Of a stretch of 54,503 bases of DNA, positions 1,410 through 21,508 are shown one piece after another (position 1 is the stretch's first letter; each line of letters starts with the position of its first letter). Below the pieces are notes generated by a model. The model did not search any database. It was not told where the DNA came from and was given only the letters and a program-made list of their open reading frames with translations. The translations under genes and the position numbers were made by a program. This DNA comes from an uncultured Candidatus Saccharibacteria bacterium (GTDB taxonomy: Bacteria; Patescibacteriota; Minisyncoccia; Phycocordibacterales; UBA9973). The stretch lies in assembly GCA_964606295.1 (NCBI GenBank), contig CAZSFR010000001.1, positions 1 to 54,503 on the forward strand. Direction: 5' to 3'.

Positions 1410-1458
1410 AGAAAAATTCTAACATGAAAATAATCTGGTTCATACAGGAAGTGCGCAG

Positions 1459-1530
1459 TGACCCTACAGAGAATCGAACTCTGATTCCATCCTTGAGAAG
1501 GATGTGTCCTAACCGTTAGACGATAGGGCC
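1459..1530 (-). tRNA. tRNA-Glu (anticodon CUC), CCA not encoded
   Basis: The reverse complement is GGCCCTATCGTCTAACGGTTAGGACACATCCTTCTCAAGGATGGAATCAGAGTTCGATTCTCTGTAGGGTCA. It folds as a cloverleaf with a 7-bp acceptor stem, anticodon loop TTCTCAA and a GTTCGATTC T-loop. Confidence 0.85.
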
Positions 1531-8986: not shown

Positions 8987-9908
8987 TTCAATAGCTTGGA
9001 ATCACTTTGTTAATTGTATTGGCGTTTTAAACAGAATTCAACCATGAAGCCGTTCATAGTTGTAATATCTAAAATATTTCTTTAAAGCGCAATTAATCTT
9101 TCTCACATCGTATGGTAGCTTGCCTAAACACTATTCCTGCACAGTTCCGTTTAACCTCTCAATGTCTGCATTGTCGTTCGGTTTCCCGATCCGTGTATAC
9201 CGATGATTCTTTTTGATGCGTAACACAAACAACGAACTAAATTTCGGCCCATGATCGGATTGGATCATTTTGAATTGAAATGGTGCATATTTTTGTGCTT
9301 CTTGCAAAAAGCGGGCACTCGTTCTGCCATTCATCCGGGCATATGCTTTAGCGTATGCCCATCGTGAGTAGGTATCAAATATCACAAATACATACAATCT
9401 TCTCCTTTGGGATATCATTCGGTGAATAGTATCAATCTCCATTAAATCACCTGAGTGCAAGGGATATGGACGCTCTTGATGCGGATGGTACCGCTTTCAA
9501 GGACTTCGTTTATTGACTAAGTAATGTCGTTTGAGAGTTCTCTTTACAAAAGACAACGAAACTCTGATTCCATCATTGAGTAACTTTTGATGCACCACTT
9601 CTGAATATCGATTGTATTTCAAATATTTTTCAACAGTCTTCCTGACTGTGTCTCTCGGAAATTCTTTTGGGGTGATGTCTTAGTCTTGATGAACGAGTAA
9701 GCATGGGATGATCTCCAATGACTCATGATCGAGCAACCCATTCAATGATGACACTTTGAGAGTATCCGAAGTGTCGAGGAAGCTTTCCTGTACTCCACCA
9801 TCAGTGTACTAGGCGAGCTGCTTCGCGACGTATCTTTGGAATGTGTTTATTTGTTGTGTAGGGCGCATGGATTCATCCTAAATGGTTAGCTGATTCCAAG
9901 TCATTGAA
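8987..9908 (-). mobile_element. decayed IS element (rve/DDE transposase, IS481/IS3-like) with terminal inverted repeats
   Basis: TTCAATAGCTTGGAATCAC (8987-9005) matches the reverse complement of 9890-9908 (TTCAATGACTTGGAATCAG) at 17 of 19 positions. The repeats bracket the transposase pseudogene. Confidence 0.7.
9032..9868 (-). pseudogene. transposase pseudogene (HTH + integrase-core DDE domain)
   Basis: The 109-aa ORF (9131-9460) holds the DDE core (...IDT..., SDHGPKF, NADIERLNGTVQE). The same frame continues past a TAG into ...YFRYYNYERLHG. The N-terminal part has several in-frame stops, and the HTH (GKLPRHFGYSQSVIIEWV, SSRLRHHP) lies in another frame. Confidence 0.75.
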
Positions 9909-16462: not shown

Positions 16463-17485
16463 ATGAAAATAACAAAAATAGCTATAAACGGCTTTGGTCG
16501 TATAGGTCGAGCATTTCTCAAAATTGCATGGGAGAGGGAGGATATAGAAATAGTCGCAGTCAATGATTTGGGAACGATCGATTCGCTAGCGTACCTCCTG
16601 AAATACGACACTGTCTACCGCACATGGGGACATGAGATCACGCACGACGGGACTCATATCATTGTTGATGGCAAGAAAGTACTTTTCATTCAAGAGAGGG
16701 ACACTACAAAGCTTCCATGGAAGGAGCTCGGTATTGACGTTGTCGTCGAATCTACCGGTCTTTTCACAACATTTGAAAGTGCAAAATTTCATCTCGACCA
16801 AGGTGCGCGCAAGGTTGTGATCTCTGCTCCTTCAAAAGGTGATGGCTCTGTCCAGGGCGAGACGATACTTCTTGGGGTCAACGAAGAGAAATTTGGAACA
16901 TGCGATATCACATCAAATGCTTCATGCACGACGAATGCTGCGTCACCGCTCATTGCAATTTTGCATGAAAAGATCGGTATCGAAAAAGCAATTCTTAATA
17001 CTGTCCATGGATATACAGCATCACAGTCATTGGTTGATGGTCCAAGCAAAAAAGATTTACGCGAAGGGCGCGCTGCCGCACAAAATATCGTGCCGTCTTC
17101 TACTGGCGCAGCGATCGCTGTGACAAAAGCATTTCCTGAGTTGGAAAATAAATTTGACGGTATTTCTGTCCGCGTGCCCGTGCCTGCTGGATCTATCGTG
17201 GACATTAGTTTCATAGCAAAGAGAGATACTTCTGCCGAAGAAGTGAATCAAATTCTCACAGAAGCATCGACGGATCCGAGATGGGAGAAGATTTTTGCTG
17301 TCACAACAGAGCCTCTCGTCTCAAGCGACATACTTGGCAATTCTCATGCTTCTATCGCAGACCTTGCGCTGACTCGCGTTGTCGGCGGGAATTTGGTAAA
17401 AGTGATGGGCTGGTATGATAATGAGTATGGGTATACTTATACTTTAGTCGAGCATGTGATAAAGACGGGGAAGACAATAAAATAA
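16463..17485 (+). CDS. gap: glyceraldehyde-3-phosphate dehydrogenase, type I
   Basis: INGFGRIGR, SNASCTTN and WYDNEYGY motifs. An extended -10 (TGGTATACT) lies 6 nt before the ATG. Confidence 0.92.
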   Translation: MKITKIAINGFGRIGRAFLKIAWEREDIEIVAVNDLGTIDSLAYLLKYDTVYRTWGHEITHDGTHIIVDGKKVLFIQERDTTKLPWKELGIDVVVESTGLFTTFESAKFHLDQGARKVVISAPSKGDGSVQGETILLGVNEEKFGTCDITSNASCTTNAASPLIAILHEKIGIEKAILNTVHGYTASQSLVDGPSKKDLREGRAAAQNIVPSSTGAAIAVTKAFPELENKFDGISVRVPVPAGSIVDISFIAKRDTSAEEVNQILTEASTDPRWEKIFAVTTEPLVSSDILGNSHASIADLALTRVVGGNLVKVMGWYDNEYGYTYTLVEHVIKTGKTIK

Positions 17486-17488
17486 GTA
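17429..17488 (+). repeat. direct repeat copy 1 (last 19 codons and stop of gap)
   Basis: This 60-nt stretch is identical to 18842-18901. Confidence 0.9.
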
Positions 17489-17493
17489 AAATT

Positions 17494-18063
17494 ATGAAAA
17501 ATATAAATTTGGAAAAAAATAGTATTACCGATACAAATAAAACTCAAGAAGGATTATTACATTCATGTTTTTTAGAAGGAGAAAAATACTCTGAACTTAA
17601 AACAGAATTAATGAATAAGGGTTATAATTTTTTAGAACACGGAGCTGTTTTAGCGCGTTTTGGAGAAAAAGGTTTTACTGGTGACGGCTCGTCACTATTC
17701 ACCGTTGCTTCGGAAGAAAATAATAATAAACTACTTAAATTAGCTTATCGAGAATTTAGTCATGAAACATTTGGAGATAGTCCTAAAACTTATCCAGAAA
17801 ATGCTTTAAAATTACAGGATTTACCAACACCACTGTTTGTTGTGAATCAAACAGATAGTTATTTTGATATTGAAGAAAATTTGAAATTAACCAATGGAGA
17901 TATTTTAGAATACTTAAAAGAATATGCGAATTTTAGTTTTATTGATGGAGTATTACATCAACATCGGGCTTATGGAGAGAATAATCAAAAAAAAGAAGAA
18001 TTAGGTGATTTTAAGATAAATTCAATCAAAGAATTAATATCAGCAATAAAAAATTTGAAATAA
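17494..18063 (+). CDS. hypothetical protein (189 aa), AT-rich orphan
   Basis: A long ORF in visibly more AT-rich DNA than its neighbours. I recognise no motif. Confidence 0.5.
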   Translation: MKNINLEKNSITDTNKTQEGLLHSCFLEGEKYSELKTELMNKGYNFLEHGAVLARFGEKGFTGDGSSLFTVASEENNNKLLKLAYREFSHETFGDSPKTYPENALKLQDLPTPLFVVNQTDSYFDIEENLKLTNGDILEYLKEYANFSFIDGVLHQHRAYGENNQKKEELGDFKINSIKELISAIKNLK

Positions 18064-18073
18064 TTTTATAAAA

Positions 18074-18160
18074 ATGTATTTAGGAAGTGATCATGTTGGC
18101 TATATGTTTAAAGAATAACTTAAGACTTATTTTAGTGAAGATTTTGTTGATTACGAAATT
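18074..18160 (+). pseudogene. decayed 5' fragment of an rpiB-like gene
   Basis: It translates as MYLGSDHVGYMFKE*LKTYFSEDFVDYEI, compared with the real RpiB MKIYIGSDHTGFELKEKLKVFLTERGDECVD. GGAAGTGATCAT is identical in both, and an in-frame TAA interrupts the fragment. Confidence 0.55.
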
Positions 18161-18267
18161 GCAGACAAAAGTGCATTTATAACGGCGGAAGCAATTCTTT
18201 ATCCTTTTAAAGCTAGATTAACTATTAAGACAAGTAAGAATATTACTAATCAATTTGTAACAATAGA

Positions 18268-18651
18268 ATGCAAAACAATAAAGATACATATATAGCGAGA
18301 CCTAGTTATACATTAGAAAAACTCAATAGTCTTTTTTTTGGTCTATTTATCAAGTATGCAGACAAAGACGATGATGATATAAAAAATGTTGAAAACGGGA
18401 CTGATTTCACAACATTTTATTGGAATATTCACCATTCAAGTTTTATTCTCGATGATACATCTAAAGAGAGCATACAAAATGATGTAAACACGCTGTGCAG
18501 TTTTGAGAGAGACTACAAAATTCATTTAAAGGATCACCATTCAATGCCTGAAATAATTTCAGAAAGACTTGTTCAAATTGAAAACATATTTACAGCTATT
18601 AAAAAAGTATATCCAGATATCAAAATACCAGACAATATAAGAAAAATCTAA
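18268..18651 (+). CDS. hypothetical protein (127 aa), AT-rich orphan
   Basis: ORF only. Confidence 0.45.
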   Translation: MQNNKDTYIARPSYTLEKLNSLFFGLFIKYADKDDDDIKNVENGTDFTTFYWNIHHSSFILDDTSKESIQNDVNTLCSFERDYKIHLKDHHSMPEIISERLVQIENIFTAIKKVYPDIKIPDNIRKI

Positions 18652-18841
18652 TAGAGACGGAGGAAACAAAGTGACGCGATGCATGCGCTTACTAAAAAAT
18701 AGAAAAGCAAGTATCATTGCTGTATAAAACCTGTCTTGGCATCATGTACATAAGGTGAGCCAGCGAGATTTTATACTCGAGAAAGTGATATAATAAGTGC
18801 ATGAAAACGTCGAATCAGCTGACATACTTCAGCAATGAATG

Positions 18842-18901
18842 GGGTATACTTATACTTTAGTCGAGCATGTGATAAAGACGGGGAAGACAATAAAATAAGT
18901 A
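18842..18901 (+). repeat. direct repeat copy 2 (orphan gap 3' end)
   Basis: It matches 17429-17488 at 60 of 60 positions. Upstream, weaker protein-level similarity continues (YFSNEWG vs WYDNEYG), with a 1-nt frame break. Confidence 0.9.
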
Positions 18902-19368
18902 TGAGTAACGAACAACTGCCACAAAAAAATAGCATACCAGGGGACCTTGCCCAAGCTCTGTTGAGTCTAGGGAACGGAGATGAAGGGAGTTTAAGACTTT
19001 TTGTCCAAAAGTACGGTATACAGCAAACACCTTTTGATTTAAATAGTTATCTACGGAAACATATTAGACAAACTGTTGAAGGTGGTGTTAGGCGGATTGA
19101 AAAGGAGCTTTCTTATGATCGTACCTTCGATACTTGGAAACTTTTTATAGATTCGGGTTTGTTGACCAAGGAAATTCTGGAAGAAGGCATTAATAATTCT
19201 ATTGAAGAAAACCTGAACAACTCGCCAGACGAAATTGAAAGAATCAATAAGATTGTAGTGAAAAGTGAGCAATTAACGTATTATGGACCGGATTTTGTTA
19301 CCGAATTCAAAAAGGATTTAGTAGAGCGAATTAAAGAAAAATTGGGTTGGGATATAAATTTGAAATAG
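18901..19368 (+). CDS. hypothetical protein (155 aa)
   Basis: The tracked ORF starts at 18835, but its first 22 codons are an out-of-frame reading of the gap remnant. The ATG at 18901 (MSNEQLPQ...) follows the copied gap stop, as the next gene does after the real gap. Confidence 0.5.
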   Translation: MSNEQLPQKNSIPGDLAQALLSLGNGDEGSLRLFVQKYGIQQTPFDLNSYLRKHIRQTVEGGVRRIEKELSYDRTFDTWKLFIDSGLLTKEILEEGINNSIEENLNNSPDEIERINKIVVKSEQLTYYGPDFVTEFKKDLVERIKEKLGWDINLK

Positions 19369-19403
19369 TATAAAAATACATTACAATTGAATGGTGACTA
19401 TAC

Positions 19404-19643
19404 ATGTCGAATGAAAACTTTATATGGAGGGGAATTCAATTCTGGAGTTCTGAAATAGAAAAAGCAGGAGCAGGAGACAACCTCCGATTCTTTAACGATG
19501 TTGTTACAGAAACCAGATCGCCTCATCCAGATGCTGGATATCAAGAGCCAGTTTTGACAGATGTTGTGTTGGGCGGAAGGCAAGCAAGCAACCGATTTCC
19601 CTGTACACGGATATTATGTTACTGTTTTAGAAGAGTAAATTAG
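19404..19643 (+). CDS. hypothetical protein (79 aa), weak
   Basis: ORF only. Its composition (W/R/C-rich tail) is not very protein-like. Confidence 0.3.
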   Translation: MSNENFIWRGIQFWSSEIEKAGAGDNLRFFNDVVTETRSPHPDAGYQEPVLTDVVLGGRQASNRFPCTRILCYCFRRVN

Positions 19644-19644
19644 T

Positions 19645-19917
19645 ATGAACAGCACAGAAAACCCTATTCCAGAATTAAATAAAAGATCAGCACCAGTCTA
19701 CAGTGTCGATGAAGATGGCAACAAATTCCGGACGGTTTTTATTCGGAAGCAAAAGGCGGGAATAGAGTACACTCTTGAAGTGAAATATGACACATATGGC
19801 AATGTTGTTATGACCTCTATTGGTGGCGCGTCACCGGCTAATCAGCAGAGACTATTGAGTACGGGACCTTTGTATGATGAAACAGATTTGTTAGATGATA
19901 GCGACGTTGCAGCATGA
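19645..19917 (+). CDS. hypothetical protein (90 aa)
   Basis: The ORF stop overlaps the rpiB start (ATGA), which suggests co-translation with rpiB. Confidence 0.45.
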   Translation: MNSTENPIPELNKRSAPVYSVDEDGNKFRTVFIRKQKAGIEYTLEVKYDTYGNVVMTSIGGASPANQQRLLSTGPLYDETDLLDDSDVAA

Positions 19918-20396
19918 AAATATACATAGGAAGTGATCATACTGGATTTGAACTCAAAGAGAAGCTAAAGGTCTTTTTGACTGAACGTGGAGATGAATGC
20001 GTAGACAAGGGAGCAACATCGTACAATCCAGATGACGACTACCCAGATTTTGTCGTGCCAGTTGCAGAGTCTGTCGTCGCAGAAGACGGATCAATAGGAA
20101 TCGTGATTGGAGGCAACGGCGAAGGTGAGGCAATAGCATGCAACAGAGTTATAGGTGCTCGAGCGATTGTCTTTTACGGTCCGGTCCTCCCAAAGCAGGC
20201 AATCGATATCACCGGCGCAACGAGCGATGATGAATATGAAATCGTGAGGCTTGGACGTGCGCACGACAATGCAAATATTCTCTCGCTTGGGGCACGATTT
20301 ATAAGCGATGAAGAAGCAATGAATGCAGTTCGCGTTTTCCTTGAGACATCATTTTCAGAGGAAGAAAGACACATAAGAAGAATAGCAAAATACTAA
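19914..20396 (+). CDS. rpiB: ribose-5-phosphate isomerase B
   Basis: It has the MKIYIGSDHTGFELKEKLK N-terminus, GEGEAIACNR and the RpiB length. Confidence 0.9.
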   Translation: MKIYIGSDHTGFELKEKLKVFLTERGDECVDKGATSYNPDDDYPDFVVPVAESVVAEDGSIGIVIGGNGEGEAIACNRVIGARAIVFYGPVLPKQAIDITGATSDDEYEIVRLGRAHDNANILSLGARFISDEEAMNAVRVFLETSFSEEERHIRRIAKY

Positions 20397-20397
20397 T

Positions 20398-20943
20398 ATG
20401 CAAGAATCATACGGCGAAGAAAAAGGTAAAAATATAGCTTTGAGCAAACTCATTTCACGGAGTAACTACTTCGAGCATGTTGATGATCATCTTGTTGATG
20501 CGGAAAATACATTTAAGTGGAAATGTGATGTATTGGATGACTTCTCTGAGGTCATTCAGAGAAAAGAAGATACACAGGCAGTCTATGACATAGTACTTAA
20601 CATTTCTTCATCACATGTCACAACTTATAACATGCAAATCGAGAATCTATCAAAAGATATTGACGACACGAAAGAAGAGAATGTTCGTTCTGAATTGAAA
20701 AATGGTATGAACGTCCTCGTGGAACAAAGAAAGTTTTATAATAAAATCAGTGAAGAGCTGTACAACATTGTTTTGAATGCCGATGTTACAAGAGATGTCA
20801 TGATGGGTGTTATAAGAAAAATTCAAAATGAAATCAGAGATACGCGAGACATATCGCGAAAGAAAGATATCATTGCAACACAAATAGACAGCGCAAGCAT
20901 GCCCGACTTTTCTGGTGGCAGTAAAGATATTCACCTCAACTAA
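20398..20943 (+). CDS. hypothetical protein (181 aa)
   Basis: The ORF is tightly packed between rpiB and the CYTH gene. I recognise no motif. Confidence 0.5.
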   Translation: MQESYGEEKGKNIALSKLISRSNYFEHVDDHLVDAENTFKWKCDVLDDFSEVIQRKEDTQAVYDIVLNISSSHVTTYNMQIENLSKDIDDTKEENVRSELKNGMNVLVEQRKFYNKISEELYNIVLNADVTRDVMMGVIRKIQNEIRDTRDISRKKDIIATQIDSASMPDFSGGSKDIHLN

Positions 20944-20944
20944 T

Positions 20945-21508
20945 ATGCGTGAAATAGAAGTCAAAGCAAAAGTCAAAAACGAAGAGACTCTTTTGTCGGC
21001 ACTCAAAAATGCAGGCTGTGAGCTCGGAAGTCCGGTGGTTCAAAAAGATACTGTCTATGTAGAAAACACAGGCAATCTCGAAACATTTCTATCAAATCGC
21101 TGTTTTATGCGTATTCGTGAAAGTGATGATGGAAGCATCCACTTCACCTATAAACGTCCTAAGAGTAATAGATTGCACAAAGAAGATAGTTTGGACAAAG
21201 TTGAGCATGAGCTTATAGTTGATAGCAAGGAGGCGTGTGAAGGAATGCTGGAGGAGCTTGGTTTCAAAAAGGCCGTCTATACAGAGAAGACTAGGCGAAA
21301 AGCAAAGTGGAAAGATTATGAGATTTGTTTTGACCAAATCGAAGGTCTTGGAAGCTTTATTGAAATAGAAAAGATGGCTGGCGAAAATGAAACGGCTGAA
21401 GATGTGGAGAGTGAATTGCTTGGTCACTTAATTTCCTTTGGTATTGATTCTCAAGAAAGAATTACGCAGGGATATGATATATTAACGATACTAAACGAAC
21501 AAAAATAA
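20945..21508 (+). CDS. CYTH-domain protein (class IV adenylate cyclase / triphosphatase family)
   Basis: It starts MREIEVKAKV (ExExK signature) and has a beta-barrel-like alternation. The ORF is open from 20915. Confidence 0.75.
   Translation: MREIEVKAKVKNEETLLSALKNAGCELGSPVVQKDTVYVENTGNLETFLSNRCFMRIRESDDGSIHFTYKRPKSNRLHKEDSLDKVEHELIVDSKEACEGMLEELGFKKAVYTEKTRRKAKWKDYEICFDQIEGLGSFIEIEKMAGENETAEDVESELLGHLISFGIDSQERITQGYDILTILNEQK

Follow-up and report, generated by a model that had tools for sequence, protein, structure and literature searches.

The question raised by this locus is how a second copy of the 3' end of a glycolytic gene came to lie downstream of the intact gene, within a conserved sugar-phosphate operon. 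The window analyzed here is the whole stretch of 54,503 nucleotides (nt) of contig CAZSFR010000001.1 (assembly GCA_964606295.1), derived from a bacterium of the candidate phyla radiation (CPR), and the element in question is the interval between gap, which encodes the glycolytic dehydrogenase GAPDH, and rpiB. An earlier note on this DNA had read the interval as two gap-rpiB cassettes from different strains, stacked in tandem through the conserved flanks. The comparison with related loci instead makes it probable that the repeat was left behind by a phage that integrated site-specifically at the gap 3' end, which would serve as the bacterial attachment site (attB), and that the interior is a mosaic devoid of phage genes.

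The direct repeat is perfect, as had been reported, with identity at 60 of 60 nt between 17429-17488 and 18842-18901, and no second repeat of at least 24 nt occurs anywhere in the window. The repeat comprises gap codons 323-340, the stop codon and 3 further nt. On the 5' side of copy 2, the likeness to gap is weak and includes a 1-nt indel (AATGAAT-GGGG compared with AATGAGTATGGG), and the frame break described previously is confirmed by this alignment. The interpretation of copy 2 as the stump of another gap allele holds only in part. Copy 2 is a displaced gap tail; however, its decayed left part resembles a phage-borne mimic of the gap tail in L182 (L-numbers denote the related loci and contigs compared, of which the main set is 161 Paceibacteria/Nomurabacteria-like CPR loci amounting to 1.4 Mb).

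The homology to L182 is not restricted to the tail. Window positions 18753-18873 match L182 8723-8844, which consists of a phage arm and the tail mimic, with 78% identity over 123 nt (E 1e-18), and this segment of L182 is located approximately 400 nt downstream of a PF00589 integrase gene. The decayed stretch translated in the earlier note as YFSNEW corresponds to the mimic, and reads CATACTTCAGCAATGAA in the window and CATGGTACAGCAATGAA in L182. This homology suggests that copy 2 and the approximately 80 nt upstream of it (18753-18901) are the relic of an attR site. The perfect identity of the two copies starts at GGGTATAC, and both the second cluster of stump boundaries described below and the point at which the live tail of L099 switches coincide there, which points to this position as that of the crossover.

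Displaced gap tails were sought in the 161 loci with a profile built on the terminal 120 nt of gap, where gap itself was masked and the threshold was E < 0.01. Such stumps were found in 15 of the 161 loci, all of them co-oriented with gap (+) and downstream of it; 13 are demonstrably inside the gap-rpiB interval, and the other two are on contigs too short to contain rpiB. The remaining ~1.3 Mb scanned contained no gap-tail stump. The left boundaries form two groups. Nine fall at profile positions 38-46, where the Trp317 codon of WYDNE is located, and six at positions 54-67, with five of these at 62-67 (GGGTAYAC) and that of the window at 54. No stump reaches further upstream, though the profile would detect such an extension. 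The stumps inspected in genome-derived loci extend to the old stop codon, and the ATG of the next open reading frame (ORF) usually follows within ~25 nt. Among the 126 complete loci, 13 gap-tail stumps stand against one rpiB-head stump, which is that of the window, and equivalent scans gave no stumps of the rpiB tail, the rpe head or the rpe tail. A general process that leaves stumps at every operon junction was rejected for this reason.

A second signature concerns the triplet ACA, which is found directly 5' of TGGTAY in five stumps or att sites. The window stump is the sixth to carry the triplet, with TGGTAY decayed to TACTTC. None of the 161 live gap genes has ACA at this place, where GGN or GCN is present, which indicates that the left part of the stump is a phage-derived mimic and not a truncated host gene.

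The direction of the displacement can be followed in three loci for which a close relative is available (L075/L071, L026/L034-35 and L031/L130-L074). In each of them, the stump agrees with the tail that is live in the nearest relative (the stump of L026 is closest to the live tails of L034/L035), and the live tail of the locus itself matches other lineages, while the gap body remains ~90% identical to that of the relative until ~-60 to -30 nt from the stop codon. As for the cargo of L075, the ORF that follows its stump is a homologue of the one located 3' of the live tail of L071, and the homologue of the ORF enclosed by its tail and stump is found in L019, the locus with the tail nearest to the live tail of L075. 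These matches indicate that each event inserts a new tail with new cargo at a fixed point and pushes the old tail with its old cargo downstream; judged by them, the stump is the displaced ancestral tail in the three loci. A possible duplicate of the tktN tail in L174 (28 nt at 82%) was too weak to be used.

Members of a tailed-phage family are found directly after gap in at least eight contigs, namely L042, L048, L129 and the IMG/VR contigs L176, L177, L180, L197 and L200. L048 and L129 were assigned by homology to the early ORFs of L182, and L177, L180, L197 and L200 by the presence of an AAA_24 homologue together with the gap flank. In L042, a metagenome-assembled genome (DATKGV010000012), the gap stop codon is followed by a terminator-like hairpin, AAA_24, Phage_rep_O and two DNA methylases. 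The same gene order after gap is seen in L176, where it continues to portal, Mu F-like and prohead-protease genes (Pfam). With the AAA_24 protein as query, 34 related phage contigs were identified among viral contigs, and in five of them (L176, L177, L180, L197 and L200) the left flank is a gap 3' end. At its right end, L212 contains a tyrosine integrase, ~370 nt, a gap-tail stump (E 2.9e-10), a 129-aa ORF and rpiB, and its integrase is 65% identical to that of L182. The 59.9-kb contig L200/L182 (IMGVR_UViG_3300025323_000513) consists of a gap tail, a prophage of ~37 kb, the PF00589 integrase, the arm, a stump and a second prophage; the integrase is located 470 nt upstream of the stump, between the two tandem prophages.

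These two tandem prophages belong to the same family and differ from each other, with AAA_24 proteins that are 49% and 93% identical to that of L176. A conserved 22-nt motif, AAAGGTCGAAATTAYTARCCAA, is present at 7099-7120 of L042, 8946-8967 of L182, 201-222 of L197 and 294-315 of L200. It is located 75-190 nt past the gap tail at the prophage left ends, after the terminator-like hairpin, and may be an arm-type binding site or an operator.

The DNA between the two copies differs from its surroundings in composition. The GC content is 26-29% over 17494-18651, compared with 45% in gap and rpiB and 41% in the whole window, and returns to 39-40% at 18652-18832, in the spacer and the arm. The low GC content of the first block, proposed previously, is confirmed; its end is at 18651 and not at ~18700. 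A profile of 150-nt rpiB heads matches 18070-18179 (nhmmer E 2.9e-12), and 18058-18179 is 80% identical at the nucleotide level to the rpiB start of L014 (E 6e-27), with the match stopping sharply at 18179. Both results substantiate the decayed rpiB-like start with an in-frame stop that had been noticed before; the start codon is changed from ATG to ATA at ~18068, and the in-frame stop is TAA. The alignment score of this rpiB stump is 148 to L014, compared with 53 to the window's own rpiB.

A third gap-tail remnant, absent from the layout given in the earlier note, is present in the interior. Window positions 18224-18651 are 81% identical to L171 5958-6384, and this match begins 30 nt inside the gap gene of L171 and covers the homologue of the cargo gene ORF127. 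Homologues of ORF127 are located directly after gap in L171/L172 (72% aa identity) and after gap in L070 (45%). The synonymous divergence (dS) of ORF127 is 0.62, whereas dS has reached saturation for gap and rpiB of the same genome pair, which indicates a recent transfer. The ratio of nonsynonymous to synonymous divergence (dN/dS) of 0.22 answers the earlier proposal of a coding-signal check, as it marks ORF127 as coding and, by this measure, as being under purifying selection. The low GC content, the rpiB stump with 80% identity to L014, the remnant and ORF127 with 81% identity to L171, and the low dS of ORF127 together indicate that the interior is foreign, and on these similarities it is a mosaic of DNA from AT-rich CPR relatives.

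The order of the pieces in this mosaic is ORF189, the rpiB stump, 44 nt without a match, the gap-tail remnant and ORF127. The resulting junction, which joins rpiB +112 to gap tail -30, is the product expected of a circle or tandem-duplication joint of a donor segment extending from tail -30 to rpiB +112. When the 1.4-kb unit is opened at the stump, it is a circular permutation of a locus with the order gap, ORF127, arm with stump, ORF189 and rpiB, and layouts of this kind are present in other genomes (L016, L075, L041 and others).

The process that probably produced the locus can be outlined as follows. The attB site would cover the final ~75 nt of gap, beginning at the Trp317 codon (in WYDNE) and ending with the stop codon. 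The integrating agents would be a family of temperate tailed phages of this CPR clade, which encode tyrosine integrases and carry a mimic of the gap tail in their attP site. The crossover would take place probably near GGGTAYAC (Gly323-Tyr-Thr). The phage-borne tail would then be fused to the gap body, leaving GAPDH intact, and the host tail would be shifted to the far end of the insert, beside the integrase-proximal arm. In the window, ORF155, ORF79 and ORF90 would be older cargo that was already present between gap and rpiB. The interior would combine two foreign pieces joined end to end, one with ORF189 and the opening 37 codons of an rpiB, the other with the final 30 nt of a gap tail and ORF127. 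The 1.4-kb unit most likely entered as a circularized or transduced fragment of a donor with the order described above, which would have recombined with the resident tail; alternatively, it may be the residue of successive integration, import and deletion events.

Tyrosine-integrase prophages and islands of the P4, P22 and L5 type target the 3' ends of tRNA genes or protein-coding genes, and their attP brings a replacement 3' end. As in those systems, direct repeats of the target 3' end flank the insert, the sequence of the element rebuilds the gene, the integrase lies beside one of the att sites (L182, L212), the original 3' end is kept as a displaced stump, and tandem arrays are formed. In contrast to them, the target here is the essential glycolytic gene gap in CPR bacteria, and the element in the window has neither a phage gene nor a left arm. 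ICESt1/ICESt3 and the cis-mobilizable elements (CIMEs) at the fda 3' end of Streptococcus thermophilus are conjugative elements of Firmicutes with repeats of ~27 bp. They share with the present case an attB site in the 3' end of a glycolytic gene, the persistence of integrase-less elements flanked by att sites, and the capture of genes by tandem accretion. However, the agents here are tailed phages (portal, Mu F, prohead protease), and the interior is built from the gap-rpiB DNA of other genomes. As in specialized transduction (lambda dgal/dbio), host DNA adjacent to the att site (a gap tail together with cargo and the initial 112 nt of rpiB) has moved between genomes at the same att site; in the window, however, no phage DNA is left except the arm, and the process is deduced from the junctions. 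The layered array also resembles the orphan C-terminal modules located 3' of rhs/cdiA, where an import replaces the 3' end and pushes the old end and the downstream gene along, although the tail here is a conserved GAPDH helix instead of a variable toxin domain and the driver is an integrase att site.

Several observations weigh against the interpretation as an integration scar. The identity of the two copies at 60 of 60 nt is not explained by either route of entry if an AT-rich foreign genome supplied the live tail, and requires either that the incoming phage or donor already had the same tail or that gene conversion took place afterwards. The window arm has a counterpart in a single phage arm (L182/L181), and the arms of the other stump loci are unrelated to it. 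Neither an empty site nor an excised circle was found for this species, with 0 matches in an exact 42-mer scan of metagenome contigs. A tblastn search with the L182 integrase gave no tyrosine integrase in the window, and no recognizable phage gene was found between the repeats, where the ORFs have no Pfam match. The conserved left-arm motif of the prophages is absent from the window, and ORF189 begins 6 nt past the repeat; the absence of this motif indicates that the left junction is not a canonical attL. Finally, the position of the crossover is deduced from sequence patterns alone.

Some of these observations bear equally on readings in which the unit is mobile. In the broadest of them, the gap-rpiB interval is a phage-driven, integron-like cassette array, in which phage integrases at the gap-tail att sites, along with aberrant excision or transduction, repeatedly carry small integrase-less units of gap tail and cargo between species, and the window's unit can still be mobilized. 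We consider this unlikely; if true, it would mean that gene exchange takes place on the 3' end of a glycolytic gene in organisms with few other known routes of gene gain. Somewhat less probable is the narrower proposal that the 1413-bp unit itself is a still-mobile integrase-less cassette, comparable to the CIMEs of fda or a mini-satellite, and is moved in trans by the integrase of a helper phage. The perfect 60-nt flanking repeats, which suggest a recent event, the P arm kept beside copy 2, the tandem arrays at the same site (L200/L182) and the circular permutation of a plausible donor locus are in agreement with this proposal. However, no phage left arm is present by copy 1, no helper integrase was found in the 54.5-kb window, the arrangement is identical in all assemblies found with neither an empty site nor a circle junction, and the unit was not found at another locus or in another genome. 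If the unit were mobile, the circle junction would read ..CAATGAATG + 60-mer + AAATTATG.. (equally ...CAGCAATGAATG + 60-mer + AAATTATGAAAAAT), and the empty site would read gap + 60-mer + TGAGTAAC.. (equally ...AATGAGTATG + 60-mer + TGAGTAACGAA).

The stacking of cassettes from different strains by general recombination (RecA-dependent or homology-facilitated illegitimate) through the conserved gap and rpiB flanks, with neither phage nor recombinase, is judged very unlikely. The foreign rpiB 5' stump and the foreign gap-tail remnant in the interior, the homologues of ORF127 and ORF155 directly after gap in other species, and the recent horizontal transfer of ORF127 would all be compatible with it, and competence genes (comEC) are reported for Patescibacteria (PMC13059738). 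The asymmetry of the stumps (13 gap tails compared with 1 rpiB head in 126 loci), the fixed instead of scattered left boundaries, the homology of the stump flank to the integrase-proximal phage arm and the ACA signature in six stumps are all against it. Moreover, the import is limited to the last 30-60 nt of gap, and homology-facilitated illegitimate recombination with a long gap anchor was rejected on this ground. The stacked-cassette reading of the earlier note is therefore retained for its displaced tail and foreign gap-rpiB pieces and replaced in its mechanism by site-specific phage integration, for which the asymmetry, the fixed boundaries, ACA and the L182 arm argue.

Two further candidates were rejected. 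An integron gene-cassette array with attC sites does not agree with the repeat region, which is unfolded (z -0.44) and has no inverted repeats; the tblastn search with the L182 integrase gave no integrase for this reading in the window, IntI not being searched for specifically. A diversity-generating retroelement does not agree with repeats that are identical or with neighboring ORFs in which Pfam detects no reverse transcriptase domain.

The soundness of the assembly was examined by means of contigs from other samples. A JGI contig from a separate sample (L001) spans both repeat copies at 100% identity, and copy 2 with its upstream arm is also spanned by L002, L008 and L173. In the Logan run SRR6448209 (k = 31), L003 begins at the first base of copy 2 (18842) and L010 stops 30 nt into copy 2, which are breaks that a genuine 60-nt repeat would cause in a k = 31 graph. 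The data are metagenomic and several contig ends fall on or close to the repeat (L001 at 17389, L003 at 18842), but with these spanning contigs and with breaks of the expected kind, a repeat produced by collapse or by mis-joining of two strain variants, which the earlier note had wished to see excluded, has next to no probability. The JGI contig L002 and the Logan contig L008 both start at 18096/18097, right after the 12-mer GGAAGTGATCAT, which is common to the rpiB stump and the real rpiB; this shared start could reflect a drop in coverage in the AT-rich block or a fork in the population.

Table 1. Features of the gap-rpiB interval, with positions in the window.
Feature	Position	Strand	Basis
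gap (GAPDH), intact, 340 aa	16463-17485	+	Pfam Gp_dh_N 4e-37, Gp_dh_C 3e-53
Repeat copy 1, live gap tail, attL-type copy	17429-17488	+	60/60 identity to 18842-18901
ORF189, cargo, 27% GC, uncharacterized conserved family	17494-18063	+	HMMER family, AlphaFold2 model
Foreign rpiB 5' end, pseudogenized, ~37 codons	18068-18179	+	nhmmer; nt identity to L014
Third gap-tail remnant, ~30 nt from the end of a foreign gap, with mutated stop; adjoins ORF127 on its 5' side	18224-18253	+	L171 match
ORF127, cargo	18268-18651	+	Homologues right after gap; dN/dS
Putative relic of integrase-proximal phage arm (P arm) beside stump	18753-18832	+	L182 homology
Displaced gap tail (stump), attR-type copy; perfect from 18842, frameshifted and decayed upstream	18833-18901	+	nhmmer E 1e-11
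ORF155, probable older resident cargo	18901-19368	+	Homologue in L066
ORF79, orphan ORF	19404-19643	+	ORF prediction only
ORF90, orphan ORF; stop overlaps rpiB start	19645-19917	+	ORF prediction only
rpiB, intact	19914-20396	+	Pfam LacAB_rpiB 4.6e-37

As shown in Table 1, the interval contains five cargo ORFs, for which nothing significant was found in Pfam, PADLOC or PHROGs. They had been described as orphans, which does not apply to ORF189, ORF127 and ORF155, all of which have homologues; ORF79 and ORF90 remain orphans. For ORF189, HMMER found 30 relatives among 1.8 G representatives, with the motifs GFSGDAASLYTLV, GWGEFS and QxDSYF, while no Pfam or PDB sequence match was obtained and a protein word-index search returned only the protein itself. 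The AlphaFold2 model based on the multiple sequence alignment is confident (pLDDT 89, pTM 0.84), and Foldseek gave no structural match to it in PDB or BFVD; the single-sequence model was uninformative (pLDDT 32). The remote-homology and structure check advised previously has thus yielded a family and a confident fold for ORF189, but no PDB or BFVD match. Its closest relative (58%) is a decaying copy between both transketolase genes of another CPR genome, beside a PemK toxin; in this insert (L174 1581-2574), the homologue, with a premature TAA, and the PemK-family toxin gene are located between the N- and C-terminal transketolase genes, which indicates that cargo is also taken up at other junctions of the same pentose-phosphate operon.

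The ATG of ORF155 shares its A with the final base of the repeat, and the gene has a homologue with 40% aa identity directly after gap in L066 and a 99% variant in L173. For ORF79, no Pfam, PADLOC or PHROG match and no homologue among the interval ORFs of 72 loci with gap and rpiB was found, and the likeness of ORF90 to small ORFs 5' of rpiB in relatives is not significant. ORF90 and rpiB overlap by ATGA at 19914-19917, as had been noted. The cargo ORFs appear to be real genes, and the tight spacing together with the ATGA overlap suggests that they are probably co-transcribed with the operon.

The window gap protein has 75-85% aa identity to its homologues in Paceibacteria/Nomurabacteria-like CPR genomes assembled from metagenomes. 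In the metagenome and genome collections, identity to the window gap reaches no more than 84-85%, and these collections therefore provided no unoccupied site of the same species; the exact protein was not on record. The gap-rpiB-rpe order is kept across 72 species-level genomes that have both gap and rpiB. In these genomes, the gap-rpiB spacing ranges from 0 to 3934 nt (median 814), the GC content of the interval is below that of gap in every case, and the 126 non-overlapping interval ORFs form 92 clusters, of which 79 are singletons. The cargo of the relatives includes DapF, a PALP enzyme, a DEAD helicase, an ABC transporter and YceI, as well as a MazG-like protein, a small GIY-YIG protein and a HicB-like protein, and no integrase is among the Pfam matches listed for these ORFs. 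In most of the 161 loci gap has only one tail, so that unoccupied attB sites are present in related genomes, and gap abuts rpiB directly in at least 10 of these loci. The gap-rpiB interval is a genuine insertion hotspot within the conserved operon throughout the lineage. The strain-variable hotspot proposed in the earlier note is supported at this level, whereas variability among strains was not seen, the arrangement being the same in every independent assembly found.

No report of gap as an attB site in CPR was found in the literature searched, and the gap 3' end is apparently the first specific chromosomal attachment site identified for temperate phages of Paceibacteria-like CPR. The principle of site-specific integration itself is already known and is unchanged by this case. 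Integration at gap would explain the presence of a hypervariable interval within a core sugar-phosphate operon of reduced genomes. It links ~34 IMG/VR phage contigs to this CPR host clade and provides a signature, ACA-TGGTAY..GGGTAYAC.. downstream of gap, with which such prophages and their scars can be searched for. The locus also shows that host DNA beside the att site has moved between species, and its cargo includes, in ORF189, a conserved family whose fold is predicted with confidence and matches none that is known.

Other insertions and small ORFs were observed in this operon and elsewhere in the window. An ORF for a MazG-like nucleoside triphosphate pyrophosphohydrolase is located after the live gap tail in L016 (7025-7330) and after the stump in L041 (1597-1902), positions that fit the inheritance of tail and cargo as a unit. 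A stand-alone 83-aa ORF with a GIY-YIG nuclease domain is present in the gap-rpiB interval of L034/L035 (7106-7357). The rpiB-rpe junction of the window (20398-21508) also has an insert of ~1.1 kb, consisting of ORF181, for which nothing significant was found in Pfam, PADLOC or PHROGs, and a CYTH-domain gene; the rpiB-rpe spacing has a median of 7 nt in 126 relatives and exceeds 150 nt in only 23. A stretch of 30 nt at 9551-9580 of the window is 83% identical to 1468-1497, part of a tRNA-Glu gene located 8 kb away (1458-1530, minus strand), and may be a tRNA fragment or another att-type scar.

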